This document shows positions 15,105 through 61,699 of a DNA stretch of 64,000 nucleotides, one piece after another. The DNA lies in the IMG/VR virus record IMGVR_UViG_3300045988_037736, positions 32,001 through 96,000 of that record; one strand, given 5' to 3'. Every line of letters starts with the position of its first letter. Within the stretch, counting starts at the first letter, position 1. The position numbers were made by a program, and so were the translations under genes. Origin of the DNA: a virus. The notes under the pieces are model-generated. The model worked only from the letters and a program-made list of their open reading frames with translations. It made no database searches and was not told where the DNA came from.

Positions 15105-15170
15105 CTAAATGAATTTTGTATGCAAATGTAGCAAAAATATCCCACTAATACAATAGTATAATACAATTAA

Positions 15171-19955: not shown

Positions 19956-19965
19956 GTTAATATAA

Positions 19966-29292: not shown

Positions 29293-29320
29293 AAATAAAT
29301 TGATTATTGGTTATATTTTA

Positions 29321-36311: not shown

Positions 36312-36412
36312 AGTTGAAGTAATGTCATAGAATGTACTCTGTGAATTAAGGTACAGGAGCTAGTTCTATACTTCATCAAAAAACTTTTCACCTAAATATT
36401 TGAGATTCATAT

Positions 36413-37516
36413 TCAAAATTCATTTATCTTTTTAACTATTTCAGTTGCTTCAATCTCCTGCAAGTTAGTATAATGGCCGTCTCCCTCACCTTCAGTAAGT
36501 GTAATGGTTACTTGTTTAATAGGATACTTTACTATAAGCATCCTACCACCTACCCCAAAAGTTGGCTTATAACATTTAATACAAAGGTAATAAATGTTTA
36601 TTGCATCCTCACCAACATCAATATATTTACCTGTAAGAATAGACCAGTCATAGCCATCCTTATGAAGAGAACATAAGAATCTGAAACCAGTATAAGGACT
36701 TCCTACCTAAGTTTTAGATGGGACAATAGTACATAGCACAGTCCTATTATCCCTCTATTCTAGTATCTCTATAAATTTGAAATAATTTTTATTAGAAGGC
36801 TATAAAGTTTCCTGTTTGAAAGTTGTTTCTCCTTGACTTACTAAATCTAGTTCTATTATTCCTGCATCATAAGGAACCCTACTGTCAAGAGTATCTATTC
36901 TCTCATGAAGTCCACTTAAGTCATAGTCAATGAAGTTCTAATTACCCCTGAGAATCTAGTCATAAACAATCTTCCTATACTTAGGTACACCATTATTCTG
37001 TAGAACTGTAAATATTATTGGTCTATGGTCATAACCATCAGCATAGTCATACTCTTCTTCCAGAAGCTATTCAAAAGTTCTATAATCATTTTCTGATACA
37101 GTTATTTCTAATTCAAGTGCATTAGAAGAAGGTCTACTTGTATAGAAATTAATAATTCTAGAATTTACATTAGACTGTGCACTAGTAGAATTATTAACCA
37201 GTGTTTCTACCTAACTAGGCAAAGAATTCAAGGTCTAGTTGACTCTCTATACAGCACTGTTAGCATTAGCTCCAGCAATCATACATTGCTAAGATGCACT
37301 AAGTGCAGACTGAGCAGCTGCATTAGCTTCATCTGAGGCTTCTTTAAGAGCACTGGAAGGAATGGTTACTAGCTCCTTAGAGTCTTTCTTATATGCAGGA
37401 AAACTATTCACATCATCTAAGCTGTTGGCCTCTGGAAGGTCTTCAACACTTACTGAAGACTTAGAGAGAAAAGCTAGCAACTCATTAAATAGTTCATCCT
37501 TTTCCTATTTAGTCAT
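36413..37516 (-). CDS. hypothetical protein ~367 aa with ~10 in-frame TAG
   Basis: Manual translation from the ATG at 37516 (MTK-TAG-EKDELFNELLAFLSKSS...) is protein-like down to the TGA at 36413. It contains tracked ORF 37289-37480. Confidence 0.4.
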
Positions 37517-37523
37517 ATCTACA

Positions 37524-38318
37524 TTATTTATTAATTAAACTTTCTGGCTTGAGATGAAGGGTCCTAGCCTCATTCATTCTCATATTTAACCCCTTTATCC
37601 TTACATCAGCATTTAAATTAAACCTTATTCCTTTATACCTATCAAGTAAAAAAGTAGTTTTATATATGTGCCATTTATTATCAGGTTCTATTCTCAAAGT
37701 ATCTTTTATTTCAATAGACTCACCATCCTAATCTACGGTAGCTATTTCTATATTACCAAATGAAGTTCCTTTAAATTTGAATGTTAAAGTAACATAGAAT
37801 GGGAATTTATAATCAGGGTCTATTGCTTCTAGATTTAAAAATGGGAAGGGCTAAGTAAGAGTACAAGGGATAGTGGAACCATTTACAGCTAATACAGGAA
37901 CTCCGTCTTCTCTGATTACAGCAGCTTTAGCTCTCTATTTGGATAAGAACCCTCTTCCTACCTTAATAAACTTAGGTCCTACTGTAAAAGGTTGGAGAAT
38001 TTCAGATAACCAATATTTAGTGCTGTCAATAAAAAATGAATTAGTGAGAATATTATCAGCTTCAATTACTGTAAAAGCATTCTCTATTTTCCATTGATTA
38101 CTTATAACTATTTCAAGTAATGCCCTTAGTACCTCATCTACATTATCTTTATTATCAAAAAAGATAGACTCAAATTTTATATCTGAAGCTTTAATATTGG
38201 TATGAAATGGTTCCCAACCTCCATTATTCCAGTATAGTAGATTACCCTTCCAATACCATAAGACTTCATGGTCCTATGGTTCTTTTGGAGTTTGTACTAT
38301 TGCTCTAAACTTTCTCAT
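37524..38318 (-). CDS. hypothetical protein ~264 aa with 4 in-frame TAG
   Basis: Start MRKFRAIVQTPKEP overlaps the preceding TGA (ATGA). Manual translation runs to the TAA at 37524. Confidence 0.45.
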
Positions 38319-39274
38319 TGCATTGCCTCAATAGTGATTAATACTTTGCTTGGGTCAGTTTGGATGTTAGCTATTATCTTAAGATAATTCCAACTATCTT
38401 CATTACCAGCTACAATGCTAGGACTATTAAATGTCTTTTGAATAGGACCCATTGAAACCTGAGGGCAATTAACTTCAAAATCTCCATTTGAAGTGTGAAC
38501 AGTCAGAACTACATTCGAAGCTTTTTTGAACTGAGCCACCCCTACAGAGTCAGTTATCTCTTTATTTATTATAGTTGTAGAAGTTATTTCAGCTAAGTTA
38601 ATAACCCCTAAATCATAAAATAATTCAGAATGGTCAAAGTGGTCAGCATCCCTTCTACAAGCTCCATCCGCAGTTAATATGTAATGCACTCTGTTACCTG
38701 ATGCTGTAGTGATGGTAGCTTCTCCACCTGCATTAGGATGCCAAGAACCTACTCCAATGCCATAGTCAGCATGAACAAGGAACTATGTTCCTGCCACCCT
38801 AGACAGCTGTTCTCTATTATATGCTTCAATCTCAGGAGAGTCACCTAGTTCAAGGTCAACATAGGTAGGAAGTAGAGTAAGGTCAATAACTCTAGTCTAC
38901 TTTACAAGCCAATTCTCATTGTAGTCTACATTGAAAATAATAGCCTTGCCATCGGCAATTGCTGTTACTTGACCATTATAAAACGTTGCTAAAATTTTGA
39001 GTGGCGCGTCGCGGTCTCTATTTACAAGTATAACAGGTACATAGTCATGTAGGGGACTCAGTTCTCTCTCTTCAAACTTTAACTTAGCCTCTGGATTGTC
39101 TTCTCCTATCGTTAATATTATATCAGTTATCTCCTCCTAGCCATCTTGTATCACCGAACTTACTATATCAGTCCATTTGCCATTGTTATGGTATTGAAGT
39201 TTGTCATTATGGAGCCACAGACTATTGGTAGGAGGGGCTGAATTTGAATGTATTATATTATCAAATTTTCTCAT
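38315..39274 (-). CDS. hypothetical protein ~319 aa with 3 in-frame TAG (C-terminal part = ORF 38315-38689)
   Basis: Start MRKFDNIIHSN overlaps the portal TAA (TAATG). Frame is continuous if TAG is sense. Confidence 0.5.
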
Positions 39275-41673
39275 TACTTACTAGTATTTGGTTTCTTATT
39301 AATCTATTTTCTTTTGAGTTCAGCATCAGTTTGAGCTTTCTTCTTATCAAAGGCTAACCTTTCTCTGTCAAGTTTGAGCCTCTCATCAAACTCTCTCATC
39401 TTTTCAAACAGATTAGCTCTTGCCTCTTCAGAAAACTCCTGCTCTTGGATGCCATCTTCCTGACTTTGAGAACCTATACCTGCTATAAGTATCTTAGTCT
39501 CATTATCTCTCTGATTCATTGTATCTTTGAGCTGCATTTCAGCTTCCCTTATCTGAGCTTCCATCTGAGCCTATTGTTGCTGAGCCTGTAATTGCTGCTG
39601 TTGAGCTTCCTGCTGTCTTTGCATAAGCTCCTGTTCATTCTTCTCAACCATTCTCTGTTTTTCAGCAAGAGAAGAGCTATTATAGAGCTTCATGATAGTG
39701 GAGAAGGTAAGAGTCTGATTCTGCAAAGCTGCCTGAGCAAGCATATCCATCTTCTGCTGTAACTCCTGTAGTCCATTACTATTATCTACAACAAGGCCAT
39801 AATCATTTTCAGAGAACTCATCTCCATCTATGTCCATAACCTTACTTGAATTATCAGAAAGAATATACTGGAACTTCTTACTTCTGCCTCTTAAAGCTAT
39901 CTTAGCTGTTTCAAGGAATGCCTCAAGAACCCTCTTCTTTACATCATCATGTATGATAAAGAGCCATTCAGTTATATGAGAAGATTGTAAGGTAGCTCTT
40001 TCGACACCACCAACAGTCTCTCTATTACTTATCTGACCTTCTCTTTGCCTAGAAATACCAGCCACATCAGACATTTCCATCTTGATAAACTCAAGAAGAT
40101 TGGTATATTGCTGTATAGTATTACCAAGTTCAGCATTGACAACTCCAGAACTTGCATTGTTAAGAGCACCTGCAAGCTTACCTGTAGCAGCACCAATATT
40201 GCCTTCCTTAAAACTATCTGTAACTACAATACCATTAGTCTTAGCAAAGTACATCCATTTCTCTATCTCCCATCCTTTAGGAACCTTAGCAAGGTCAAGG
40301 TTAATAAGCATACCCCAGTTTCTTGAGATTAGCTTGTTGAGCCTATCATGAATTGTATCATAGAGATAGTTATAGGGCTTCATCATATCAACAAGAGAGA
40401 AAGGCTTGTTGTCATTAAGGTTATAGATAGAACCTATAATACCAAAATGGCACCTTGAAGGATTGGATAGTCTGTTATACTGAACTACTCTAGGTCTCAT
40501 GTTGACATAGATGTCATTACCTATCTTTGTCCCTTCCCAGGCTTCATTGATATATAATATCTTTTCCTCCTCACCTTTGTCCTTATCTATAACGTAAGTT
40601 TCTGGGTAGAGATTAAATACCTCTTCACCTGTCTGAGGGTCGTAAGACTTAACTTTCTTAATTCTCCTTCTTGATTTCCAGTAAACTCTAAGTACCCTTA
40701 TATTTCCTGCAACATCAAAAGGAAGAAGTGAAGTGCCTACACCATCTGTCATTCCTATGGGGTCCCAGAAGAAACCTTCCTGAGAAGTAAATTCTTCCCC
40801 TATCATGTGCCCATTTACAAACCCCATTCTATCATCTATGTTATCCATAGAGTCAGTTACTTGGTCTGTGTTATTGGGCATCTTTTCTATGTACTCCATG
40901 TCCTTTTTGGTAAGGACATCATAATAAGTGTCTATGATTTTACCAGGACTCCAATAGTCCTCAAGTACAATCATATCAGCATCCTCAATCCTGTTACTAT
41001 ATCCTGACTTGAATACTCTGACTTTAAGAGGATTTAGTCTTTCTATGATAGGTTCACCACCTACAATATCACATTGGTAAATCTCTTCACCTACTGCCAT
41101 TGCATCAGTGAAACCTTGATTAAAGAGGAAGGGGAAGTTGAGTTCCTTGGAATAGTGGTTAAGGAGAGCATTAGCTCTCACTTCTCTCATATCTTGCCAC
41201 TCAAATGTAAAGAAGTCATTGAGCTTCTCTAGCTCTGCATTGAACTCTTCCTCTGACTGAGTCTCTTCAGATAACAGTTGCTGTACTCTTGCAAGTAGTT
41301 CCTGCTTCTTGTTGTTCTCTATTTCAGAGATAGCATTTGGATTAGTTACAACTACCCTATAGTCAAATACTCTCTTGGACTCTTCTCCCCTAAGAACATT
41401 TAATTTACTATTCATTATAGGGTAATGCTGAATCCTTTCAGGTATGTAACCTGCCTTTATATTATCAGGGTTCAATACCATTGCAAGGTCACTCATGTGA
41501 AGCCTACCATTAAGTAAATCATAGTTGATTTTCTTATGTATCACACTCTTCCTTACCAAAGAATAGTTGAAAAATGTCTTAGAGTCAGCCCAGTCAAGGT
41601 GCTTCTTTCTCCAAGCCTTATTCTTTCTGGAGAATGGCAGTTGTTGTGGGGGTAAATTTGTGAAATCACTCAT
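39274..41673 (-). CDS. portal protein candidate (~799 aa; ORFs 39571-41673 + 39304-39564 + tail joined through 2 TAG)
   Basis: 700-aa ORF immediately downstream of the terminase. First TAG sits inside a poly-Gln run (QQQQLQAQQQ-TAG-AQMEAQ). True TAA at 39274-39276. Confidence 0.5.
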
Positions 41674-41773
41674 ATATTCTTCAACTTAAATGTGCTGCAA
41701 AGGTAAGCAAAACCTTTAACTTGTGCAAGCCCATAAGTAAAATATTAAGTCTTAGTACTCTTTTTTGCTAAAT

Positions 41774-44700
41774 TTACTGTATATACCCTTGGGAGTAATT
41801 CCTTTGGAAGAAAGAATCATTGCCTAAGTATGAACTACTGACTTCCTCCTGTGCCTTAGCATTAAGATTATCTCTATACAGTATAATCTTCTCTTGTCTA
41901 TACAGCATAACCATACCTAATGCCCTGATTCTATCCACATTAAGTTCAGGAGTGTAGGAAATTAACTCTTCAAGTAATGCTCTATTTCTTAGAGAATAGA
42001 GCCTTGGAATATTGACCTCTTTCTCTTCTCCATCCTCCTTTATTATAGTTGGAACTGGCTGAAGTAGCCAATCCCTTATCAGGTTATTAGCATAATTGTT
42101 GATAGTAGCATTCGCATTGATACCTTTTGCATTTGAGCCAAAGGCAGAATACTTAATCATCTGTTTGTCTCTTAAATATTCAGGAGTATCTGCCAGTAGG
42201 TGTGTGCATTCCATTCTGCTAAAGTAACCATACAGGCCCTTCTTATTGGATTCATACATGCACTTGGCATTATAGAATAGACACAGCATTCTTACTATCT
42301 CAAAGTTATCATCTGCAAATGCCTGCCTACCAGTGTATTCTGCTACAATTCTGTCAGTAAACAGGTCAAGTACAAAGGTTGAAGAAAGAGAAGAAGACTC
42401 TGCCTAATCATTATCCACAGGGTCATGGCCTATAATATATCTCATATTGAAATCATCCCCATTTGCTTGTTTCTCAGGCATTTCAAATATCTCAATAGCA
42501 CCTACTGTTGAATTGTCAACTCCATACTTTCTGATAGGCACATCATTACCTATTCTAAACTCTACCTTATTACCACTTGCTAGGGCAAGATTACCTATGT
42601 AAACATCATCAAAAGCATGAGGGTCTGAGTCAAGTTGAGCCAATCTCTCAGTAAGAGCTACTGTAGGAAAGTAGGCAGCCTTCACTTTAATGATAGCTTC
42701 AGCTGGTGTAATTGGGTCCTCGGCAATAACTCTTAATACTGACTTAGGGTCAGCAGAATATTTAGCTTTGTGTCTTGCCAACAGAATTTCTATGAGAGCC
42801 TTTGTTACATCAGAAACACCATCCTTGTTGTAACATCCTGCCCTATTTACATAAGAAGGAAAGAAAAATCCAAAGGTAGGCTTTCCTTGCTTAGGTCTGT
42901 CATAGACATTCTCAATAGCCAGAATATTGTAACCATCTGGATTGTAAAGAAGAGTTTTTGCCGAACTGAAGTCTGACTCATCCTCAGCAGCAGTATTATG
43001 AGTTACTATATTGTTAGCCAAGTAGGTATGACTTAATCCAGCAGTTAAATTATATACTTCTTGTTCACCTATCTCTTCTACAGAAGTAACTTTGTGAACT
43101 ATTATATCCTCTGGATATTTTTGAGCCTTCATACTCGGATTGCTATTATAATAGTCCATTATCCTTTTAAGGCAATCTCTCTTGTGCGGAACAAGAAGTT
43201 GAAGCACACCACACACTCTTGTACAATTATGTCTCCCTGATATAGATAGAGTAAACCAAGAATTTCTATCTTTCCTATCAGAACATAGTTTTGGCTTAGT
43301 CTCCACAATAGTGCCAACTACTCCAAATTTTCTCCACAGTACTTTAACTTGCTCTAATATTTTCCTATTGCTTTGAGTTAAAGATATATATCCGTCTCTA
43401 TTAAAGCTTATACTACCATCAGTATCATATAATCCAGATAGCAATAGTGAGGTATCATCTCTTGTAAGAGTCTAATAGTTGATAGGAAGCCTTTTATTGG
43501 ATTTTACTTGCCCCTAAATACCTAATTCTCTTAATTTATTACAAATACCTTTAATTCTTATATCCTCGTATATTTTTCCTTTCTTGGTAATATGAGTAGC
43601 AGATAATGACCATTCATATCTATGCTTTACATAGTCTAAAAGCTCTTTATCCTCAGAACTATACTTGGGGGATTGCCTTAATCCATAAGAACCATCTCCA
43701 ATAAGCATACCTACTAATCTAGGGTCAAACATGGTATCTGTCCCAAATATTGGAACTTCCCTACTCTCTATAATTCTATCTCCTACACTTAAAGCTCCAG
43801 CATTTTTGAATACTTCTTCATAATACCTTATAGACCCATTATGATTCATTCTTTGTTTCTGAGTAAGAATTGGATGGTCTGTAGAGCATCTAAGTTCATT
43901 TCCATTACTCAGTTTAATAAGTACACATGGTTTTTTAGCAATACTTATAGAACTCATTATAGGTTCTTTGGTAATCCCTCTTGTGAGGTGAATATTAGGT
44001 TCAGTACCTGACTCAAAGGAGTCTGTAAATCCTATGATACCATCCTCTCTCTTTAAATCCTCTATATTGATATTCCTGCCATCTAATGTCCATACCTTAG
44101 TACCAGCACATACACAACCTACAAGGTACATTGTAGCAAATGTATAGTCACCATCTTCTACAGACTTTCTTGTGATGTCATACAGGGATAGAAGTCCCTT
44201 AAATGAACCCATCTCCTCGAATAGAATCCAACCTCTCTTACCTCTTAACTTCTCTGAGTCATCCTTTGCAGAAACAGCAAGCACCTGATTCAATGACCCA
44301 CTTTCAATACCAAACTCATCCTTGTAGCCCATCTGCCATGCCATCTCATTAGGAGAGTTCTTTAACATGAGCCTAGGGAATGGAGTATTTTTGAAGGAGA
44401 AGTTAATTCCAGGTTTGAACTTAGAGAGTGTGCCATCCTTACTGTCACTAAGATACTCTTTCTGATAAGCAGTAAGTACAGTAATAACCCTCCTCTTTAC
44501 TTCAGTAGATTCACCAAGTATAAGGTTGTGAGACATTATACTTGCAAGACTATATGACTTTGCACAATTATGAGTAGTTATAAAGTCCCCTACTAAATAA
44601 CAGGAGTCTTTAGAGTCTACAGTAACACATTTACAAGGAGATACCCCAGCATACTCAATATTGACTATGGCAGTTTTGTTCTTTCTTGATAAAGCATTGG

Positions 44701-46180
44701 TGCTACTATAATGTACACCACTCTTCTTCCTTGGCAAATTAAACAGTTCTTCTCCACCATATACTGCTATTTCATAGCAATCAGAGCATTGTATGTAACC
44801 ATTAAAAGCTTTATACCTTGCTCTGCTCTTAGATATCTTGGTGTTATATCCAAGACTTCTAGCTATAAAATCCACATCTTCGATTAGTCTTTTTGAAATA
44901 GAATTTAGTGTAGGTACTCCTCCATGTATAGAGCCATCTGTATCAAATAGCCCTTTTAGGACTTTTAATCTTACATCCCTTGAGTTGTACTTGTATTCTT
45001 CAGGAATAAACTTATCTATAGATTTTGCATTATTCAGTCCATAAGACTGCAGGATACTATTCCAATTAGGAATATGTACTCTATAAGAATATTTACCTGC
45101 CCACTTAGTATATTTGTAGGGAATATAGTTCTTTTCTATATCAAAGTCCTTATCTATTTGGGTAAAATAGCAAGAACCATGCCTAAAGCACCCATCCCCT
45201 AATAGAAGTCCAAATGTATAAGGTTCTACCAGAGTATCTTTATATGGCAAGTTTATTCCTTCATTCCCAGGAATGAAACAGTTATATTCAATACCAGAAG
45301 GAATCCTATAAGAGGGAGTTCTATTAGTCTTGTAATTAGACAATAGCCAAGCTGTATTGACTGTCATATTCTTCCCCTTCCTCTCTATATTCCATAAGTG
45401 GTCATCAGTAGCAAACACCGTTCTGCCATCCCTAAGAGTTATCTTGTAGTAAGGAGAGACTTGGTCGTAAGGTATATCTATAACAGTACAGACAGAATTA
45501 TCTGTAGCATATAATTTATCTCCTATCTTAATATCCTTCCACAGCTTCCATCCTTCTGGGGTAAACACCTTCTGGAAATAGGGGTGAGCACCCCTCTTTG
45601 CAAGTTCTATGGCATGTTTACCAGCCTCTCTTGCTTGATGAAGATAGTGAAATCTCCAATAGATTCCTTCAAAGAAGAAGGGGAAAGACTCAACTCTGAC
45701 AGCTTTCCTTGTGCCAGAAATTACCTTATTTACCATCATGGGACAGTAATTAAGAAACCAATAAAGGAATCCTGTGACCCATTCTCCATCACTCTCCCTT
45801 ACATAACCCTCTCTACATCTCCTCATCTCCTCATCCCAGTGCTTTCTGTATTCACTGTTAGGATTAGAATTTGGTCTTAGAAAAGTATAGCAGCCATGCT
45901 TCATAAAGTGTAAGGCTGGTTGTCTGAAATAATCCATATCCTCAAGTATATGAGGATTGGCAAGGTCTACTATAATCCTTCCTTGCTCATCTCTTGGTCT
46001 ATCCTTAGCATATACCCTATTAGGAGAGATAAGTCTTTTTATAAGTTCTACACTATTTATAGTGTCCAATAACTCCTCCTTGACCTCCTCAGGTAAAGAC
46101 CCAAGGAGTTCATCAGTCAAGGGGGTCTGGTACTCATTCATTTCAATAGCCGAGGTATTCTCCATAGATAATATCTTCAA
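41774..46180 (-). CDS. terL: terminase large subunit interrupted by two inteins, each carrying a LAGLIDADG homing endonuclease. 3 in-frame TAG (two inside intein 2, one in the C-terminal extein).
   Basis: Three same-frame ORFs (43514-46180, 42404-43444, 41774-42289) are separated only by CTA (=TAG). Intein 1 runs ...AHPYFQKVFTPEGW...ATDDHLW...LLLGDGCF...LKGLFDTDGSI...VGDFITTHN|C. Intein 2 runs CVCAGTKVWTLDG...STDHPILT...LVGMLIGDGSY...LSGLYDTDGSI...NNIVTHN|T. C-terminal nuclease motif YIIGHDPVDND. Walker-B-like ILFEEMG. Confidence 0.65.
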
Positions 46181-46556
46181 GTATTGTTCTGTCTTTGTTG
46201 TTAAATGACTTGCCGTCTATAATAAGACTGAATAGTCCTGTAACAAATTCAGACTCTATATCCTTAATAAAACTTTCCTGTACATTAGGAGGAATGTTAC
46301 TTATATTGACCTGCTTGGTCAAAGTGAGAAGTCTATGCTTCGAGTTATTACCAACTACCCATAGTATATATTCATATCTCCTATATGACTTAAAGGTAGG
46401 ATGAGGTTCTATAACTCTCTGTAGAACAAGATGTTCTTGATTACTTGGAATAACCTGAAGGTCTCTCCTCTTATTGAATATATGCACATTAAGTGACTCA
46501 ATTACATCTTCAAGTGTCATATTACAAATCTTCATACATTGCTTTTTCCTGAGCAC
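46143..46556 (-). CDS. hypothetical protein 137 aa (possible small terminase by position)
   Basis: ORF directly upstream of terL. Function is positional guess only. Confidence 0.35.
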   Translation of the reverse strand: MLRKKQCMKICNMTLEDVIESLNVHIFNKRRDLQVIPSNQEHLVLQRVIEPHPTFKSYRRYEYILWVVGNNSKHRLLTLTKQVNISNIPPNVQESFIKDIESEFVTGLFSLIIDGKSFNNKDRTILEDIIYGEYLGY

Positions 46557-47064
46557 CTCTTACCTTATTGCTCTGAGCAATTTCCTTGGCAATAGCTGCT
46601 TCAGCTTCATTCAAATCTTTCACAAGAGTAGGAATCTGCTTGATAGTTGCAGTGATAGTATTGAGAGTATAGATAGGTTTACCCTTATCATCAAGGGCAC
46701 CAAGGTCTATTTCCCTCAATAGAGTCCTCAGCTTATCAACTGCCACTCTGGTATCTTCAAGAAGTAATGCAGATGCTGGCTTGAAAGTCTTATAGAACTC
46801 CATTGCCTCAAGTACAAGGTTATCAGGCTCCCAGTCATTAGGTAAGCCTTCACCTTCCTTAATAGAAGCCTTCCTACTTTCCTCATCTATAATGTACTGA
46901 TAGTCACTTCTTGGGTCAGCCATAAAATATATGTAGGAAATCTCGGCTATTGCTCTATTTTTGTTTGCAGACCTGTCCCTGTTCCATATCTTCTTAAAAG
47001 GAGTTAATGCTAAAGCTTCAGGAGATATGATTACCTTATAACCTTCAAATTTAAGTAGTTTCAT
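46522..47064 (-). CDS. hypothetical protein ~180 aa (internal start MKLLKFEG preferred over the tracked start at 47160)
   Basis: The tracked N-terminus overlaps the GIY-YIG gene by 110 nt. The internal ATG removes the overlap. Confidence 0.5.
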   Translation of the reverse strand: MKLLKFEGYKVIISPEALALTPFKKIWNRDRSANKNRAIAEISYIYFMADPRSDYQYIIDEESRKASIKEGEGLPNDWEPDNLVLEAMEFYKTFKPASALLLEDTRVAVDKLRTLLREIDLGALDDKGKPIYTLNTITATIKQIPTLVKDLNEAEAAIAKEIAQSNKVRGAQEKAMYEDL

Positions 47065-47716
47065 TTTTATATTTCCATTTATAACCTCCAGCTGATGGTC
47101 TTTTACCTCTAGCACATCTTGATATGTGAGTCTCCAAAACTCCAGTATCTCTAGCTGCATCAGCTATTGATGGGTATGTACAAATTATATTTCCTTCTTT
47201 ATCACATTTAACTATTTCAATTAAGTCATGATAACTGTGATTAAGTCTCATCTTAAGCTTAGCCTCTTCAGACTTAGGCTTTCCTTGTAAGGATAAACTT
47301 ATCTTTAATTTATGCTCTATTGTGAGAGGAACACCTTTGAATCTGGAACTTACTAAGAGCTTAACATGCTCAGGTATCTTTTTACCTTTGCCTTTAACAC
47401 TCATTTTTCTTCTAGTCTCTTCAGAATGCCTATATCCAAGAGACCCTTCCCCGCCATCAGTTATATTATAAGATATGCCTAGCTCCTTATATTCTTTAAT
47501 TAAGGTTATCTCTAACAGATTAGCTTCCTCTTTAGTTAGTCCTTCTTTTATTATATCATGCTTAAAGTTATCCCACCCATACTTTTCTATGGCTCTCTTA
47601 AAGATACCTGTTTTGTATCCTCTCCCCTCTTTCCATCTCTTTCCCACATTAAAAGAGGTCTGACCTATGTAGACCTTGCCATTAACTTTATTGGTGTGTT
47701 TATATACTGTGTACAT
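47051..47716 (-). CDS. GIY-YIG homing endonuclease (third copy)
   Basis: MYTVYKHTNKVNGKVYIGQT motif. Confidence 0.75.
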   Translation of the reverse strand: MYTVYKHTNKVNGKVYIGQTSFNVGKRWKEGRGYKTGIFKRAIEKYGWDNFKHDIIKEGLTKEEANLLEITLIKEYKELGISYNITDGGEGSLGYRHSEETRRKMSVKGKGKKIPEHVKLLVSSRFKGVPLTIEHKLKISLSLQGKPKSEEAKLKMRLNHSYHDLIEIVKCDKEGNIICTYPSIADAARDTGVLETHISRCARGKRPSAGGYKWKYKNETT

Positions 47717-47766
47717 ATCAAAAAAAAATAGCCTGTACAGAACTTAATCTATACAGGCTTAGATTA

Positions 47767-49742: not shown

Positions 49743-49757
49743 AATATTTCGATTTAG

Positions 49758-49830
49758 TTGCGGGAGGAGGACTCGAACCTCCGACCTTCAGGTTATGAGC
49801 CTGACTAGCTACCACTGCTAACACCCCACA
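49758..49830 (-). tRNA. tRNA-Met/Ile2 (anticodon CAT)
   Basis: Cloverleaf by hand: T-arm GGAGG-TTCGAGT-CCTCC, anticodon loop CTCATAA. Confidence 0.6.
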
Positions 49831-49836
49831 ATATAG

Positions 49837-49907
49837 AGCAGGATAGGAGAATCGAACCCCCAAATCCACTTTGGAAGAGTGGCATTTTACCATTAAACTA
49901 ATCCTGC
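49837..49907 (-). tRNA. tRNA-Gly (TCC)
   Basis: Perfect 7-bp acceptor GCAGGAT/ATCCTGC. Anticodon loop CTTCCAA. Confidence 0.7.
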
Positions 49908-49916
49908 ACTTACTTG

Positions 49917-49989
49917 AGCTTCCTAGAGGACTCGAACCCCTGACATACTGAGTACAAAACAGTAGTTCTACCAGCTGAACTAAGGAAGC
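49917..49989 (-). tRNA. tRNA-Thr (TGT)
   Basis: Acceptor GCTTCCT/AGGAAGC. T-arm AGGGG-TTCGAGT-CCCCT. Anticodon loop TTTGTAC. Confidence 0.65.
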
Positions 49990-50313
49990 TTTCCTAAAGA
50001 TTACTCAGGATTAATAAGTTTATTAAGTTCTTCTTTAAAAGTTTTGAGCCACTCTTTGTCTTGGTTGTTGGGGCTATTAAGAATAATTTTAGTCTGTGTT
50101 AGCACCATCCTAGCAATAGGGTGTGGTATCTTTACCTGTTCCATAATTATATTTTTTTTTATTTTCTAACACTTATTTCATTTAATTTATCATAAAAATC
50201 AAGAACAAACTGTTCATCCTGCAACAGTGAGTTACTTACCTCTTTGTCAATCTGCTCTAGCTAGAGCATTACATTGGACATAAACCATTTTAAAGCTTCC
50301 TTATTCATTGTGA

Positions 50314-50385
50314 TTAAAGTTAGTCGCCCCACTCTGGCTCGAACAGAGACCAAAGGATTTAGAGTCCTCTGTGCTAACCATTACA
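50314..50385 (-). tRNA. amber suppressor tRNA-Sup (anticodon CTA), built on the tRNA-Gln scaffold
   Basis: TGCCTCA-TG-GTGT-AATGGTTA-GCAC-A-GAGGA-CTCTAAA-TCCTT-TGGT-CTCTG-TTCGAGC-CAGAG-TGGGGCG-A. Anticodon 34-36 = CTA with U33/A37. Positions 8-26 are 18/19 identical to tRNA-Gln(TTG) at 54395-54466. Confidence 0.75.
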
Positions 50386-50890
50386 CCATGAGGCAATATT
50401 TTATTAACAATGCAAAGGTATGAAAAATAATTTAAATTACCAAATAAATTGATAATAAATTTTTAATAAAAGTGTAAATAAAATGGAGATAATATAGCAT
50501 AAGCTACGGTCATATACCAAGATTGATTAGACTCCAGGTCTACACTAGCAGTTCTTTCTTTTTGAACACCAAGAGAATATAATAAATTGTGAGTTCTCCA
50601 TTCATTAAGTAAGCTAAACATAGTTCTGTTATTAATAGAACTGTATGGGTAAAATCTAGCTTTTAAATGAATGAGAAACTACTTCATATCAGATAATGAA
50701 GTGATTTTATAGGAATCATAAATAGCTATATTATTATCAGATATGTCTACTTGATATTTCTGTTTATTATACTAAACTGTGTATTTCATACTTTTACAAA
50801 TAGTAAAGGGGTTATGATAACATGAATTACGCCACCTGAATATTTACAGTAAAACTCAATGTTATATAAATACTTAATTTCTTATTTCAG

Positions 50891-50977
50891 TACCCCCTGA
50901 GAGACTCGAACCCTCACACTACTATTACTTCATACTGGTTCCTAAGACCAGCGTGTCTACCATTCCACCAAGGGGGC
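50891..50977 (-). tRNA. tRNA-Leu (TAG), type II
   Basis: Anticodon arm CTGGT-CTTAGGA-ACCAG with a long variable arm. Confidence 0.6.
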
Positions 50978-50981
50978 ATTG

Positions 50982-51063
50982 TACCTCTGGAGGGATTTGA
51001 ACCCTCAAGGATTAAATCCGAGGGATTTTAAGTCCCTTGTGTTTACCATTTCACCACAGAGGC
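50982..51063 (-). tRNA. tRNA-Leu (TAA), type II
   Basis: Anticodon arm AGGGA-CTTAAAA-TCCCT. Variable arm GGATT/AATCC. Confidence 0.65.
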
Positions 51064-51078
51064 TTATTGTCTCTCTTT

Positions 51079-51678
51079 TTAGAGAGAAGTATATTCTGCT
51101 TTAGCATCAAAACTTGGACATGCTTTATTTGCAAACTCCCTATGGCCATGTATTGTAGCATTAGGGTACTTTGCTTTAAGCTGTTTAAGAAGCTGTACTA
51201 GAGCAGCTTTTTGAGCTTCAGTTCTAGTATCTTTTGGAGTTTTTCCATCCTTGGCACATCCTCCGATATAGCATACTCCAATAGACATTGTATTGTGCCC
51301 AGTACAGTGTGCTCCAGATATAGCCTCTGGTCTACCAGCATGTATTGACCCATCTCTATAGATTACATAATGATAACCTATATCAGAGAAACCTCTTTGA
51401 AGGTGCCATTGCTTAATCTGCGCAGTAGTAAAGTCCTCACCTTCAGGAGTAGCAGAACAATGAACTATAATTTCCTTTATATTCCTCTTGTTCTGAGTTA
51501 CATTCAGCTTAGACCATGTGTTATTTCCCACTATGCCATCTACAACAAGACCATTAGCCTTCTGAAATTCTTTGACTGCTTCTTCTGTGAGAGGTCCAAA
51601 TATTCCATCATCTTTCAGATTAAGCTTCCTCTGAAGGAGCTTTACATTAGGACCTTTATCCCCTCTTTTTATTACCAT
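51079..51678 (-). CDS. endolysin: N-acetylmuramoyl-L-alanine amidase (Amidase_2/PGRP) with an N-terminal peptidoglycan-binding repeat
   Basis: GDKGPNVKLLQRKLNL..DGIFGPLTEEAV..ANGL is a PG_binding_1-like domain. HCSAT...AHCTGHN...IGVCYIG is the amidase core. It is embedded in the tRNA array. Confidence 0.7.
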   Translation of the reverse strand: MVIKRGDKGPNVKLLQRKLNLKDDGIFGPLTEEAVKEFQKANGLVVDGIVGNNTWSKLNVTQNKRNIKEIIVHCSATPEGEDFTTAQIKQWHLQRGFSDIGYHYVIYRDGSIHAGRPEAISGAHCTGHNTMSIGVCYIGGCAKDGKTPKDTRTEAQKAALVQLLKQLKAKYPNATIHGHREFANKACPSFDAKAEYTSL

Positions 51679-51701
51679 ATCTTTCTCTTTTTACTATGTA
51701 G

Positions 51702-51775
51702 TGGAACCTCAGGGAGTCGAACCCCAGCCCTCAGAGCTTCAATCTGATGTGACAAACCATCTACACCAAAGTTCC
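51702..51775 (-). tRNA. tRNA-Phe (GAA)
   Basis: Acceptor GGAACTT/AGGTTCC. Anticodon arm TCAGA-TTGAAGC-TCTGA. Confidence 0.65.
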
Positions 51776-51840
51776 AATATTATCTATTCAGGTCTCTACC
51801 CCTGTCAGGCTTATAGATAAAAGCCAAAGTTCTATTGAAG

Positions 51841-51921
51841 TGGGAGCAAAAGGACTCGAACCTATGAACTCTTAGAGGGTTGATTTACAGTCAACTGCGA
51901 TTGCCGCTACGCGATACTCCC
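51841..51921 (-). tRNA. tRNA-Tyr (GTA), type II
   Basis: Anticodon arm GTTGA-CTGTAAA-TCAAC with a long variable arm. Confidence 0.65.
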
Positions 51922-52104
51922 ATATTTATTATCAAATAACTTGTCAGAGAGGAAGGAGGAACTATCCTTAAGGGACAGGTATAAATACATCACCTGTACA
52001 CCTTATAGAATAGTTCTCAGCAGTCATTCTAAAATAAGCTTTGACTGCTTTCTTAATAAATCTAAGTACTCTCATAACACTGTTATTTAATTAAAATGTT
52101 ATGT

Positions 52105-52176
52105 CTTCCTACAAGGATTTGAACCTTGAACCTTCTGATTAAGAGTCAGTAGCTCTACCATTGAGCTATAGGAAGT
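52105..52176 (-). tRNA. tRNA-Lys (CTT)
   Basis: Acceptor TAGGAAG/CTTCCTA. T-arm CAAGG-TTCAAAT-CCTTG. Anticodon loop CTCTTAA. Confidence 0.6.
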
Positions 52177-52288
52177 GGTAGAAGGGTATTTGTTAAGGAG
52201 TTATTTATCCCTTCCTTCTCCTTAGTAGTCAATTGTAGCTGTTTTTACGGAGGTTTTTCCATGGATAGACTACCTGCTCCTCCAAGGA

Positions 52289-52360
52289 CTCTAGGGTGGG
52301 AATTGAACCCACAAATACTGGTTTTGCAGACCAGCTCCTAACCATTCGGAATCCTAGAGA
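52289..52360 (-). tRNA. tRNA-Cys (GCA)
   Basis: Acceptor CTCTAGG/CCTAGAG. T-arm GTGGG-TTCAATT-CCCAC. Anticodon arm CTGGT-CTGCAAA-ACCAG. Confidence 0.7.
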
Positions 52361-52426
52361 TATAGACATAGCAGTTTGAAACCACCCCAGGGACTACTAT
52401 GCCACTCATGAGTATTGTATGGATGG

Positions 52427-52496
52427 CAGGGCTTGAACCTGCGTGTGACCAACTACCCTTTCTAGTGTGTATAAGACACAGGGGATACATCCATAT
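52427..52496 (-). other. atypical tRNA-like element/pseudogene. Good acceptor and T-arm plus a perfect TGTGT-CTTATAC-ACACA hairpin (anticodon TAT would be Ile/AUA), but no D-arm.
   Basis: Acceptor ATGGATG/CATCCAT and T-arm GCAGG-TTCAAGC-CCTGC are present. The core cannot be folded into a canonical cloverleaf. Confidence 0.3.
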
Positions 52497-52502
52497 GTTG
52501 GG

Positions 52503-52573
52503 GTGCTAGGTGAGAATTGAACTCACATCTTCCACATTCACAGTGTGGTGCTTTACCATTAAGCTACTAGTAC
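52503..52573 (-). tRNA. tRNA-His (GTG)
   Basis: T-arm GTGAG-TTCAATT-CTCAC. Anticodon arm CCACA-CTGTGAA-TGTGG. Discriminator C. Confidence 0.7.
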
Positions 52574-52576
52574 AGT

Positions 52577-52650
52577 TGGGATAGTAGGACTTGAACCTAC
52601 GGTCTTCTGAATATCAGTCAGATGCTTTAACCATCTAAGCTATATCCCAA
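52577..52650 (-). tRNA. tRNA-Ile (GAT)
   Basis: Acceptor TGGGATA/TATCCCA. Anticodon arm TCTGA-CTGATAT-TCAGA. Confidence 0.7.
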
Positions 52651-52653
52651 TGT

Positions 52654-52729
52654 GGCAAAGGTGGAAGGAATCGAACCCTCACTTGTGAATTTGGAGTTCA
52701 CTGTGCTACCATTAACACTACACCAATGA
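52654..52729 (-). tRNA. tRNA-Trp (CCA) with two U-U mismatches in the acceptor stem and a genomically encoded 3' CCA
   Basis: Anticodon arm GTGAA-CTCCAAA-TTCAC. T-arm GAGGG-TTCGATT-CCTTC. 3' ...CACCTTTG-CCA. Confidence 0.5.
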
Positions 52730-52736
52730 GTAATGA

Positions 52737-53213
52737 TTATTTTCTTTTGTTTTTACCTGCGTATGTACTTGTCTGTGAATGACAGTTAGGGCATAAGAAT
52801 CTTAAATTCTCTAATCTATGGTCATTATTTATACCATTTATGTGGTCTAGATGTAGAGATAGTGGCTGACCATTCCACGAGGATATACCACATTTACTGC
52901 ATTCATATTTTAGCAACTTATTGTCTATAAGCCTTCTTTTAAGTGAAGCTATATTAGCATAGCTACTATTCTTTACTAGTATGTTCTCAATGGGATATAC
53001 TTGCGTTGGAGATTTTATGCTTACATCTCCAAAGTGAGATGTTGAACATCCTAGTTCTTGGATTCTTCTTTTCAAGACATCTTGTGAAGAATCCCCTTTA
53101 GTAGTTAGTCCTAATGCTCTCAGGGTATCAGAGTAACTATTAACTCTATTTATTAAATTTATAAACTCCTTATCAGAGATACTATATACTTTACTTGTAC
53201 CTTTTCTTCTCAT
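52737..53213 (-). CDS. HNH homing endonuclease
   Basis: C-terminal HLDHINGINNDHRLENLRFLCPNCHSQ motif. Paralog of the plus-strand HNH at 61700-62116. Confidence 0.8.
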   Translation of the reverse strand: MRRKGTSKVYSISDKEFINLINRVNSYSDTLRALGLTTKGDSSQDVLKRRIQELGCSTSHFGDVSIKSPTQVYPIENILVKNSSYANIASLKRRLIDNKLLKYECSKCGISSWNGQPLSLHLDHINGINNDHRLENLRFLCPNCHSQTSTYAGKNKRK

Positions 53214-53215
53214 AG

Positions 53216-53258
53216 TGGTAGGTAAAAGAATCGAACTTTTACTAGTACCATACCTACC
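53216..53258 (-). other. tRNA minihelix-like element (acceptor stem + T-arm only, 43 nt) directly upstream of the HNH gene
   Basis: GGTAGGT-ATGGTACTAGT-AAAAG-TTCGATT-CTTTT-ACCTACC-A. Perfect 7-bp acceptor and 5-bp T-stem with a canonical T-loop. No D-arm or anticodon arm. Confidence 0.45.
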
Positions 53259-53374
53259 AGTTGCTACCTTTAACCACCCCCTGTAGCTAGGTTGAGTTAT
53301 ACGACACTCAGAACAGAGCTAATATCTGAACATGTTACGTTGAGTCTTACACTAGTACTATTCTCTTTATTAGG

Positions 53375-53444
53375 CTGGGATAGAGAGAATCGAACTCTCA
53401 CCAAGAGATTAACAGTCTCACGCTCGACCTTCGAGCTATATCCC
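53375..53444 (-). tRNA. tRNA-Asn (GTT)
   Basis: Acceptor TGGGATA/TATCCCA. T-arm GAGAG-TTCGATT-CTCTC. Anticodon loop CTGTTAA. Confidence 0.65.
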
Positions 53445-53530
53445 AAAGTGGGCAGTTTCTTTATCCTCTAACTGCCGAAAAGAGGGACTAACAACAGTCC
53501 TACAATTTTATGAAAACATGAAAAACAAAG

Positions 53531-53604
53531 TGGACAATGAGGGACTTGAACCCTGAACTTCTCCTTGCAAAGGAGATGTGTTAGCCAATTACACCACAAC
53601 GCCC
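53531..53604 (-). tRNA. tRNA-Ala (TGC) with an imperfect acceptor
   Basis: Anticodon arm TCTCC-TTTGCAA-GGAGA. T-loop TTCAAGT. Acceptor has one U-U mismatch and two G-U pairs. Confidence 0.5.
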
Positions 53605-53610
53605 ATTAAG

Positions 53611-53683
53611 TAGAGTAGACAAGACTCGAACTTGCAGTATCACTTCATCCCAAATGAAGGGGGTTACCTATTACCCTACTACT
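53611..53683 (-). tRNA. tRNA-Pro (TGG)
   Basis: Acceptor AGAGTAG/CTACTCT. T-arm GCAAG-TTCGAGT-CTTGT. Anticodon arm CTTCA-TTTGGGA-TGAAG. Confidence 0.6.
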
Positions 53684-53691
53684 CTATGTTG

Positions 53692-53777
53692 AGGAGAGCA
53701 TTGGACTCGAACCAAAGCCAAATTAATGACCACACTATTTAGCAGATAGGTTTATCACCTTGATAAATTACTCTCCA
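53692..53777 (-). tRNA. tRNA-Ser (GCT), type II, unusual D/variable arms
   Basis: Perfect acceptor GGAGAGT/GCTCTCC. T-loop TTCGAGT. Anticodon loop CTGCTAA. Its 5' end overlaps the last 10 nt of the FTR-like CDS. Confidence 0.45.
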
Positions 53778-53965
53778 AGTTTCTTATATAAACCGCAGCA
53801 ACAGTGGTCTAGTACTCTGTAGTTTGAGCAAGGACAGTGCTTATCTTCAGAGTTATTCTGACAAGGACACAGTCCATTGTTCTGTTCAACTCTTTTAAGT
53901 ATTGAGTTGACTACTTTATCATTAGGGTTGAGCACCCACCCTTCTTTTCTCAGAATTGTTATCAT
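53768..53965 (-). CDS. ferredoxin-thioredoxin-reductase catalytic-subunit-like Cys-rich protein (65 aa from the internal ATG; the tracked ORF starts at a TTG inside tRNA-Ser)
   Basis: CPC-x11-CPC-x10-HCCC spacing (LCPCQNNSEDKHCPCSNYRVLDHCCCG) resembles the FTR catalytic-chain CPC...CPC...CHC signature. Confidence 0.45.
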   Translation of the reverse strand: MITILRKEGWVLNPNDKVVNSILKRVEQNNGLCPCQNNSEDKHCPCSNYRVLDHCCCGLYKKLGE

Positions 53966-53967
53966 AG

Positions 53968-54054
53968 AGGAAGCCTGAGGACTCGAACCCCACCCACTTT
54001 CACATGAGCATTCAGTTTTCAAGACTGCTTCTATCCCTGATAGATTAGACTTCC
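53968..54054 (-). tRNA. tRNA-Ser (TGA), type II
   Basis: Acceptor GGAAGTC/GGCTTCC. T-arm TGGGG-TTCGAGT-CCTCA. Anticodon arm CAGT-CTTGAAA-ACTG. Confidence 0.5.
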
Positions 54055-54088
54055 ATTTGGCTCCTCTGAGCCTTTGTTACATAGCCAG

Positions 54089-54162
54089 CAGCCCATGGGG
54101 GAATTGAACCCCATCCCTCACATTGACAGTGTGATATGCAAAACCATTACACTTCATGAGCT
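54089..54162 (-). tRNA. tRNA-Asp (GTC)
   Basis: Acceptor AGCTCAT/ATGGGCT. Anticodon arm TCACA-CTGTCAA-TGTGA. Confidence 0.6.
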
Positions 54163-54170
54163 ATATATTG

Positions 54171-54243
54171 TAGTGCCACTGGGGTTTGAACCCAGATTAC
54201 TGCCTTGAAAGGGCAGTTTCCTGACCATTTAGAAGATGGCACC
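54171..54243 (-). tRNA. tRNA-Glu (TTC)
   Basis: Good cloverleaf: D-arm TTCT/GGAA, anticodon arm CTGCC-CTTTCAA-GGCAG, T-arm CTGGG-TTCAAAC-CCCAG. Confidence 0.7.
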
Positions 54244-54318
54244 ATGCACCCTACTTGCACCTTCACAGGCTAGGTAGGTAATGATTCTCACTTCTTTGCC
54301 ATTTACATTCTTTTCACG

Positions 54319-54390
54319 AACAAGTTTGTACTCCCTGTAAGACTCGAACTTACAACTTAGGGCTTAGAAGACCCTTGTTCTTCCATTGAA
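54319..54390 (-). tRNA. tRNA-Arg (TCT)
   Basis: T-arm GTAAG-TTCGAGT-CTTAC. Anticodon arm AGGGT-CTTCTAA-GCCCT. Confidence 0.7.
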
Positions 54391-54394
54391 CTAA

Positions 54395-54466
54395 GGGAGC
54401 ATAGTTGCCACTAAAGGACTTGAACCCTTACACTCAGAACCAAAATCTGATGTGCTGACCATTACA
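54395..54466 (-). tRNA. tRNA-Gln (TTG)
   Basis: TGCCACT-TG-GTGT-AATGGTCA-GCAC-A-TCAGA-TTTTGGT-TCTGA-GTGT-AAGGG-TTCAAGT-CCTTT-AGTGGCA-A. Same architecture as the CTA suppressor. Confidence 0.75.
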
Positions 54467-54701
54467 CCAAGTGGCAATGTTCTCTTGAATTACAGTGCAA
54501 AGTTAGGTAAAATTTTTGATATATGCAAATTTTTAGACAGAAAAAAAAGGAGAATCACCACACTCGACGCGTCGGGTACAGGTGGCACGTTCTCCTTCTC
54601 TTTTTTTTTTATTTTGTTAAAATTTTGTGTTGGCTTATGTTTTTTATAAAATACCTGCGAAAATCCTCCTGAGAGACAGGAGTCTATCTGCTTTTATAGG
54701 C

Positions 54702-61269: not shown

Positions 61270-61343
61270 GCCCTCATAGCTCATCAGGATAGAGCAACAG
61301 TTTCCTAAACTGTAGGTGGAAGGTTCGAGTCCTTCTGGGGGTA
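61270..61343 (+). tRNA. tRNA-Arg (CCT)
   Basis: GCCCTCA-TA-GCTC-ATCAGGATA-GAGC-A-ACAGT-TTCCTAA-ACTGT-AGGTG-GAAGG-TTCGAGT-CCTTC-TGGGGGT-A. Confidence 0.7.
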
Positions 61344-61368
61344 CTAAACAATTAAAGTAAGAAGGAAA

Positions 61369-61606: not shown

Positions 61607-61679
61607 CTCCCCTTAGTTCAGCGGATAGTAACAATGGTCTTCTAAACCATAAACCCCAGTTCGAGTCTGGGAGGGGAGA
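61607..61679 (+). tRNA. tRNA-Arg (TCT), second copy, on the plus strand
   Basis: Acceptor CTCCCCT/AGGGGAG. Anticodon arm ATGGT-CTTCTAA-ACCAT. T-arm CCCAG-TTCGAGT-CTGGG. Confidence 0.65.
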
Positions 61680-61699
61680 CTAAAATAAATTTATATATT

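Follow-up and report, generated by a model that had tools for sequence, protein, structure and literature searches.

Reassignment of the stop codon TAG to glutamine, together with phage-encoded suppressor tRNAs, is established in crAss-like phages (PMC7886860; 10.1101/2021.08.26.457843; and PMC9523058), and tRNAscan-SE assigns phage SUP-CTA tRNAs to glutamine (PMC10607447). Yutin et al. (2021, PMC7886860) describe two individual cases: the beta-group crAss-like phage OFRY01000050, which gained a TAG suppressor and has started to accumulate TAG codons while its relatives did not (Supplementary Fig. 11), and the alpha-group crAss-like phage OKSC01000115, in which tRNA-Gln(UUG) was turned into a UUA suppressor by point mutation (Supplementary Fig. 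10). The subject of the present analysis is a tRNA gene with a CUA anticodon in a 64,000-nt stretch of viral DNA (the window), positions 32,001 to 96,000 of IMG/VR record IMGVR_UViG_3300045988_037736, which derives from a gut crAss-like phage of Steigviridae-like ("beta group") affiliation. This tRNA is probably a phage-encoded amber suppressor of the glutamine (Gln) type, belonging to a family that is widespread in TAG-recoded crAss-like phages. A comparable tRNA of Escherichia coli is supE, the glnV amber suppressor, in which a Gln tRNA body carries a CUA anticodon and inserts glutamine at UAG, glutaminyl-tRNA synthetase (GlnRS) tolerating A36; supE and its parent tRNA are one anticodon base apart.

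The top BLAST matches of the window suppressor are the CUA tRNAs of cr53_1 and cr60_1, two code-15 crAss-like phages of the Suoliviridae, which are labeled tRNA-Gln in RefSeq and are 55-56/72 identical to it. The CUA anticodon, U1, the weakness of pair 1:72, and the D arm are common to all three. The genomic setting is similar as well: the suppressor lies upstream of the large terminase gene (TerL) and the late genes, TAG is concentrated in structural and tail genes, and the early genes keep the standard code. In cr53_1 and cr60_1, the CUA tRNA stands just upstream of TerL genes with 13 and 7 TAGs, respectively. The main differences are that the window phage is Steigviridae-like, that its suppressor is located within a 21-tRNA array having a normal tRNA-Gln, and that its anticodon stem is another one.

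Similar to OFRY01000050, which is of the same group, the window phage has a suppressor and TAGs in TerL, and its closest relatives lack the suppressor and use the standard code. The genomes are different ones, however: OFRY01000050 measures 96.5 kb and has 8 tRNAs and 15 TerL TAGs, whereas the full contig nearest to the window measures 98.8 kb, and the window holds 23 tRNAs and ~3-5 TerL TAGs. The suppressor of OKSC01000115 likewise has a phage tRNA-Gln as its body, with a D arm of the same type, but it arose by a one-base change of a resident gene, reads TAA, and is not accompanied by recoding; here, a separate, diverged, inserted gene reads TAG and recoding is present. The window suppressor resembles supE in joining a Gln tRNA body to a CUA anticodon. 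Unlike supE, it is at least 17 of 69 positions away from each of the Gln tRNAs compared, has A73 in place of G73, and has a remodeled anticodon arm (C32, A37, A38, and a new stem). The phenomenon itself, genetic code 15, is already known, and the gene looks as though it was acquired from elsewhere.

The open reading frames (ORFs) of the window contain 105 in-frame TAGs compared with 678 CAA/CAG codons. TAG is concentrated in the late genes, and many late ORFs are lengthened when TAG is read through; no in-frame TAG is present in the RNA polymerase, capsid, or amidase genes of the window. By ORF and codon counts, the genes concerned are as follows.

12414-15170, minus strand: late gene with 6-7 in-frame TAGs.
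15207-20024, minus strand: virion "stabilization"/structural protein gene (PHROG match), with 40 in-frame TAGs and 22 CAA/CAG codons.
35358-39277, minus strand: four late genes in a row, whose in-frame TAGs number 7, 11, 4, and 3.
39274-46300, minus strand: portal gene (2 TAGs) and large terminase gene (5 TAGs in the ORF), downstream of the suppressor on the same strand.

TAG is the major Gln codon in the gene at 15207-20024, where it accounts for 65% of the Gln-type codons; the share is 57-58% in two genes at 36413-38327. The 1582-residue product of the former gene, with X at its 40 TAG sites, was aligned to 119 homologues. Glutamine makes up 35.4% of the residues at TAG columns and 39.2% at genuine CAA/CAG columns versus 2.1% elsewhere, and eight TAG columns hold glutamine in 118-119 of the 119 homologues. 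The mean BLOSUM62 fit at TAG columns is 1.45 for Q, 0.50 for E, 0.19 for K, -1.1 for Y, -1.9 for W, and -2.0 for L; in calibration, this procedure recovered all 20 residues at their own columns. According to the residue columns and TAG counts of a mafft --keeplength alignment, the orthologues of the gene in crAss001 and IAS virus are free of in-frame TAG; their Q residues are therefore encoded by CAA/CAG and do not reflect an artefact of code-15 gene calling. No TAG-to-CAA/CAG substitutions were countable, the only close IMG/VR relative of the TAG-rich gene being the same phage (99.8% nt identity). These columns bear out an earlier, sequence-only description of the window (the preliminary description), according to which TAG is decoded as glutamine, and they indicate that in-frame TAG is read as glutamine in this phage. 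They also agree with proteomic data that show TAG = Q in crAss-like phages (PMC9523058).

Two of the TAG-bearing genes have further features. The second TAG of the portal gene (39274-41685, minus strand) is located 11 codons ahead of a TAA, and the sequence fits either a Gln codon or a true stop. The TerL ORF (41774-46300, minus strand) has ~1,504 codons, compared with 754-756 in three relatives described below (L326-L328). It contains intein-like blocks, and two of its TAGs fall within the extra segments, which are probably two inteins, as annotated for the TerL of cr60_1.

The CUA tRNA lies in an array together with a tRNA-Gln(UUG), the resident tRNA-Gln.

49757-54476, minus strand: array of 21 tRNA genes (ARAGORN, Rfam), syntenic with the crAss001 array.
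50324-50395, minus strand: amber suppressor tRNA, anticodon CUA, with a body assigned to the Gln type (ARAGORN; Rfam RF00005, 55 bits; cloverleaf; family covariation; isotype classifier).
54405-54476, minus strand: resident tRNA-Gln(UUG), first gene of the array (ARAGORN; Rfam, 62 bits; cloverleaf; orthology with relatives).

Both tRNAs of the preliminary description are thus real, but their coordinates had been set exactly 10 nt too low and the strand, minus, had not been given. The suppressor has U1.G72, G2:C71, C3:G70, G10, the D arm GUGUAAUGGUUAGCAC, the anticodon loop CUCUAAA, a 4-nt variable loop, and A73; CCA is not encoded in the gene. The resident tRNA-Gln has U1:A72 and the anticodon loop UUUUGGU, the same as in Bacteroidales host tRNA-Gln. 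Single-sequence minimum free energy folding returns a cloverleaf for neither tRNA; against this result, the covariance model and the family covariation were relied on.

The likeness of the two tRNAs, which the preliminary description had taken as that of a near-copy, is confined to one part of the molecule. Arm lengths are indeed equal, with a cloverleaf segmentation of 7/2/4/8/4/1/5/7/5/4/5/7/5/7+1 in both, and positions 8-26 are 18/19 identical, as stated there. The shared Gln elements proposed in it hold for U1, G2:C71, G10, and A73, but not for pair 3:70, which in both tRNAs is C3:G70 rather than G3:C70. Positions 1-4 are identical, and exact alignment leaves positions 1-26 alike at 23/26, the highest value among 253 pairwise comparisons of window tRNAs (mean 13.7, standard deviation 3.1). 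The remaining 43 comparable positions match at 19/43, which is under the mean for non-cognate pairs (22.7, standard deviation 4.0); the anticodon stem, variable loop, and T arm differ, as had been noted. Overall identity is 44/73, with 28/72 positions differing. The likeness, though real, does not extend beyond the acceptor top and D arm, and the term "near-copy" is inaccurate.

The body of the CUA tRNA is nonetheless of the Gln type, judging from its acceptor end (U1 and a weak 1:72 pair), G2:C71, G10, entire D arm, 4-nt variable loop, and A73, all of which are as in Bacteroidales and phage tRNA-Gln. A home-made, anticodon-blind naive-Bayes isotype classifier, trained on 962 tRNAs that were not chosen for the D-arm motif (leave-one-out accuracy 82%), ranks Gln first (-63.5) and Arg next (-70.2), a margin of 6.7 nats. 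As a control, the classifier returns the right isotype for 20/22 other window tRNAs. In a BLAST search of the CUA tRNA against 50,697 phage genomes, every annotated tRNA match is "tRNA-Gln". On both counts, the earlier assignment of the tRNA to the Gln type is upheld.

The D arm alone is merely suggestive of Gln, since its motif is also found in other tRNAs. In the same phage, with gaps allowed, tRNA-Phe matches it at 18/19 and tRNA-Ala at 17/19, and the exact motif in 120 cellular genome loci belongs to 75 tRNA-His versus 33 tRNA-Gln. The motif-bearing tRNA-His genes come from Saccharibacteria, Patescibacteria, and Pelagibacter, and the tRNA-Gln genes mainly from Prevotella, Prevotellamassilia, Alloprevotella, and Bacteroidaceae. 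By contrast, the combination of the D region (at least 16/19) with U1 and A73 is strongly Gln-specific in the unbiased reference set (5/21 Gln vs 3/941 others, Fisher p = 1.6e-7). As a side observation, the D-arm sequence TGGTGTAATGGTTAGCAC is carried by tRNA-His in Saccharibacteria, Patescibacteria, and Pelagibacteraceae and by tRNA-Gln in Bacteroidales (genome contigs L082-L200); one contig of a "Tenericutes" metagenome-assembled genome (L171) bears a phage-like CUA tRNA.

In Bacteroidales tRNA-Gln, U1:A72 and A73 are found in 13/13 sequences, together with G2:C71 and a segment 8-25 that is the same as in the suppressor. The discriminator A73 of the suppressor matches this host-type tRNA-Gln; the discriminator of E. 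coli tRNA-Gln is G73. The E. coli identity element G3:C70 is absent from the suppressor, and most Bacteroidales tRNA-Gln have U3:A70; the E. coli 3:70 rule may not apply in a Bacteroidales host. From the Gln anticodon loop (U35, G36, host G37, U38), only U35 is retained in the suppressor.

The pattern of D arm plus CUA anticodon loop is found in at least 80 IMG/VR contigs of 95-190 kb. Among 16 distinct family members, 98.5% of the cells are paired and 15/21 pairs are changed on both sides, and 0/500 shuffles are as good. U1, the D arm, and C32 U33 C34 U35 A36 A37 A38 are invariant in the family, and pair 1:72 is always U.G, U:A, or a mismatch across the 16 members. A36-A37-A38 is the MiaA substrate motif. 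The anticodon arm GAGGA-CUCUAAA-UCCUU recurs exactly on CUA tRNAs with quite different bodies. This recurrence on unrelated scaffolds points to convergent tuning for UAG; such tuning of the anticodon arm corresponds to the "extended anticodon" idea.

Variants of these tRNAs were also observed. Six loci (L330-L335) have the exact anticodon arm of the window suppressor, GAGGACTCTAAATCCTT, on CUA tRNAs whose bodies are unrelated to it, among them a tRNA that has a long variable arm; TAG may stand for other amino acids in other phages, or the arm may be convergently optimal. Seven IMG/VR contigs of 130-193 kb (L003, L004, L007, L013, L018, L039, and L044) have a second, unrelated CUA tRNA scaffold (TCCCCATTAGTATAATGC...) beside the Gln-type one, and L003 and a few other loci of the D-arm/CUA set also have a tRNA with a UUA anticodon (TAA suppressor type). 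In L006, L009, L024, L052, and L073, the CUA tRNA has the Gln-type D arm but measures 88-91 nt, since ~20 nt separate its anticodon arm from its T arm; this stretch is a long variable arm or else an insertion.

Relatives of the window phage have the array without the suppressor. The crAss001 array is syntenic, running Gln-Arg-Glu-Asp-Ser-Pro-Ala-Val-Asn-Trp-Ile...Phe-Leu-Leu-Thr-Gly...Met, followed by chaperonin, TerL, and portal genes, and the resident tRNA-Gln is orthologous by position to its tRNA-Gln. No CUA tRNA is present in the crAss001 array, where the Leu and Thr genes are 5 nt apart, and there is no TAG in the crAss001 TerL. The closer relatives L326-L328 were reached via the amidase gene within the array (80-83% identical), locus L329 (P0142), which has no tRNAs and whose translation does not match the query, being left out. 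They have the same tRNA array, with a Gln orthologue that is first in the array and 58-61/73 identical to the Gln of the window. They contain no CUA tRNA and no in-frame TAG in TerL (754-756 codons), and one ORF of these relatives terminates in TAG. Presence of the suppressor and recoding thus co-occur among close relatives. A megablast search of the tRNA region against deposited phages gave short tRNA matches only. The segment that carries the suppressor, and the elements preceding the suppressor and the resident tRNA-Gln, are the following.

49990-50398, minus strand: ~409-nt segment comprising the suppressor and 334 nt downstream, with no counterpart in global alignments with L326 and L327.
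50413-50444, minus strand: match to the Bacteroides-type promoter consensus, TTTG-N20-TACCTTTG, with its end 17 nt ahead of the suppressor gene (pattern scan).
54498-54529, minus strand: second copy of the consensus, TTTG-N20-TAACTTTG, with its end 21 nt ahead of tRNA-Gln, where the array begins (pattern scan).

The flanks of the ~409-nt segment are ~81% identical to L326/L327. Since the segment has no counterpart there despite the aligned flanks, the suppressor reads as a lineage-specific insertion between the promoter element and tRNA-Thr. The 334 nt that accompany the suppressor contain a perfect 14-nt palindrome, GCTCTAGCTAGAGC, at window positions 50254-50267. The Bacteroides promoter consensus is TTTG-N18-22-TAnnTTTG, and on the minus strand of the window it is matched twice, before the suppressor and before tRNA-Gln; a scan for sigma-70 promoters is uninformative for a Bacteroidales phage. 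The copy before the suppressor has an aligned counterpart ahead of tRNA-Thr in the suppressor-less relatives, so that the insertion would have put the suppressor first in a Thr-Gly-Met unit. Downstream of this unit, and on its strand, come TerL, portal, and the late genes rich in TAG. The element at 50413-50444 would work as the promoter of this unit, and the extent of the transcript is predicted in the same way.

Outside the anticodon, over 69 positions, the identity of the suppressor is 0.73 on average to other suppressors (maximum 0.81), 0.64 to 79 phage tRNA-Gln (maximum 0.75), 0.66 to 13 Bacteroidales tRNA-Gln with the same D arm (maximum 0.70), and 0.61 to the resident tRNA-Gln. Orthologous tRNAs of the window and crAss001 are 63-86% identical, mostly below 75%, and the suppressor and the CUA tRNA of cr53_1 are 78% identical, which is above most of these orthologous pairs. 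Lateral acquisition is therefore favored: the most likely source of the suppressor is another recoded phage, and not a recent duplication of the resident tRNA-Gln. An old origin of the suppressor family from a phage or host tRNA-Gln is likely.

The preliminary description had instead derived the suppressor from the tRNA-Gln(UUG) of this same phage, by duplication followed by a supE-like anticodon mutation. The near-identical positions 1-4 and 8-26 (together 23/26) and the equal arm lengths agree with such an origin, as do the precedent of a phage tRNA-Gln that became a UUA suppressor by one anticodon mutation (Yutin et al., PMC7886860) and certain ~180-kb phages in which suppressor and resident Gln share 53-54/69 positions and near-identical T arms. 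In the window phage, however, similarity over the remaining positions does not exceed background, and the resident Gln, at 0.61, is not the closest relative; other phage tRNA-Gln and, above all, other suppressors (0.73-0.81) are closer. The two genes stand 4 kb apart with 17 tRNAs in between, and the relatives retain the Gln orthologue without the suppressor, which occupies a discrete insertion. Nor is the change limited to the anticodon as in supE, as the whole anticodon arm is remodeled and not merely position 36. An origin by duplication within this phage is accordingly unlikely.

Direct capture of a Bacteroidales host tRNA-Gln, with later mutation of the anticodon arm, also appears improbable. 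Positions 8-25, U20 included, are the same as in tRNA-Gln of Prevotella, Prevotellamassilia, and Bacteroidaceae, the T arm is like that of L095 (17/21), U1 and A73 are as in the host, and a bacterial source was proposed by Yutin et al. for another beta-group TAG suppressor (PMC7886860). The identity to the Bacteroidales tRNA-Gln nevertheless stays at or below 0.70, less than that to the suppressors of other phages, and the acceptor stem (UGCC../..GGGGCG) and anticodon arm are common to other phage suppressors and not to host Gln. That the CUA tRNA delivers Leu, Trp, Tyr, or Lys in place of Gln, or that TAG read-through does not depend on it, is highly improbable: the ARAGORN label "Pyl" derives from the anticodon alone, the crude nearest neighbor is a Leu(UAA) tRNA owing to a similar anticodon arm, and the D-arm motif is found in tRNA-His elsewhere, whereas the TAG columns fit Q well and L, W, Y, and K poorly, the lack of a long variable arm makes the Leu, Ser, and Tyr types unlikely, the lack of G-1 and C73 makes His unlikely, and the CUA tRNA and in-frame TAGs go together among close relatives.

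Several points weigh against a Gln-type suppressor that was acquired laterally and placed behind an existing promoter. The fast divergence of the tRNAs, evident from the comparison with crAss001, makes an old duplication of a phage tRNA-Gln in the history of the family possible, and in the ~180-kb phages suppressor and resident Gln look like paralogues, matching at 18/21 positions in the variable loop and T arm. By whole-molecule identity, the nearest non-CUA neighbors are Leu(UAA) at 49/69 and the best Gln at 48/69, in a one-nearest-neighbor test whose leave-one-out accuracy for Gln is 2/6 and in which free end gaps gave aberrant alignments. A36, A37, and A38 in place of the host G36, G37, and U38 would weaken recognition of the anticodon loop by GlnRS. 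The promoter is a consensus match only, and the 4 matches counted across the window do not exceed the chance expectation (mean 1.84). Finally, the data cover 64 kb of a ~99-kb genome.

For the Gln-type suppressor favored here, charging with glutamine would be carried out by the GlnRS of the host. In Bacteroidetes genomes, GlnRS is present and GatCAB is mostly absent (PMC3927822), so the direct GlnRS route is to be expected, as hypothesized by Borges et al. (10.1101/2021.08.26.457843). The charged CUA tRNA would then compete with release factor 1 (RF1) at UAG, so that the TAG-bearing genes for structural and tail proteins, which follow downstream on that strand, would be translated in full. Tuning for UAG may have shaped the anticodon arm (C32, A37, A38, stem GAGGA/UCCUU), with the parts that specify Gln identity kept. 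Among eight ORFs near the array, Pfam finds no release factor, aminoacyl-tRNA synthetase, or amidotransferase; ~35 kb of the genome (IMGVR_UViG_3300045988_064014) are outside the window.

A broader and more tentative proposal, which falls somewhat short of an even chance, is that the CUA tRNA, instead of being a simple anticodon mutant, is a specialized gene with lateral mobility. It would combine the Gln-identity parts (weak U1:72, G2:C71, D arm, and A73) with a convergently optimized "extended anticodon" arm, also seen on unrelated CUA scaffolds, and would move between crAss-like families, able to land behind an existing late-operon promoter. If this is true, the phage and its suppressor-less, standard-code relatives are a natural before/after snapshot of a genetic-code switch. 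What is known of code 15 in crAss-like phages is unchanged by the window suppressor; the locus adds a second clean beta-group example of the onset of the code change. It sets relatives with ~81% nucleotide identity and the same array, without suppressor or in-frame TAG, against a phage with a ~409-nt insertion behind an existing promoter, in which TAG is already the majority Gln codon in some tail genes. Efficient amber suppressors for Bacteroides could be engineered on the model of this natural pairing of a Gln-identity body with an anticodon arm tuned to UAG.

The affiliation of the window is based on its structural genes and close contigs. The portal (39274-41685), major head protein (27778-29310), and virion structural protein genes, all on the minus strand, were identified by PHROG matches. 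The major capsid protein is 78-80% identical to its counterparts in crAss001 and cr85_1, both Steigviridae, and the 98.8-kb contig present in IMG/VR is near-identical to the window. ARAGORN finds 23 tRNAs in the window, and Rfam confirms the array members. Three other reading frames break up the array: a small ORF at 50463-50843, the amidase gene at 51079-51690, whose exact protein occurs on 85 public contigs, and an HNH endonuclease gene at 52737-53216. The HNH gene, of the homing-endonuclease type (PHROG 10822, minus strand), is located between tRNA-Asn and tRNA-Trp, and a GIY-YIG/NUMOD3 homing-endonuclease gene (47051-47743, minus strand) stands upstream of TerL, adjoining the array.

No tRNA-Val was found in the window; crAss001 and two relatives have one at the corresponding place of the array. 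The tRNA-Met downstream of the suppressor (49757-49830, minus strand) shares ~80% identity with the tRNA-Met located after the CUA tRNA in cr60_1 (L324, 4217-4290); both are upstream of TerL and may represent a conserved or co-transferred module. When the ARAGORN threshold is relaxed, the array yields an additional gene resembling tRNA-Ser(GCU) (53691-53776, minus strand) and a degenerate tRNA-like sequence (53215-53282, minus strand), and the 139-nt gap between tRNA-Cys and tRNA-His (52360-52498) is tRNA-like by eye, with no call. Two more tRNA-Arg genes, at 61270-61344 (CCU) and 61607-61680 (UCU), are found on the plus strand, 7 kb off the main array.

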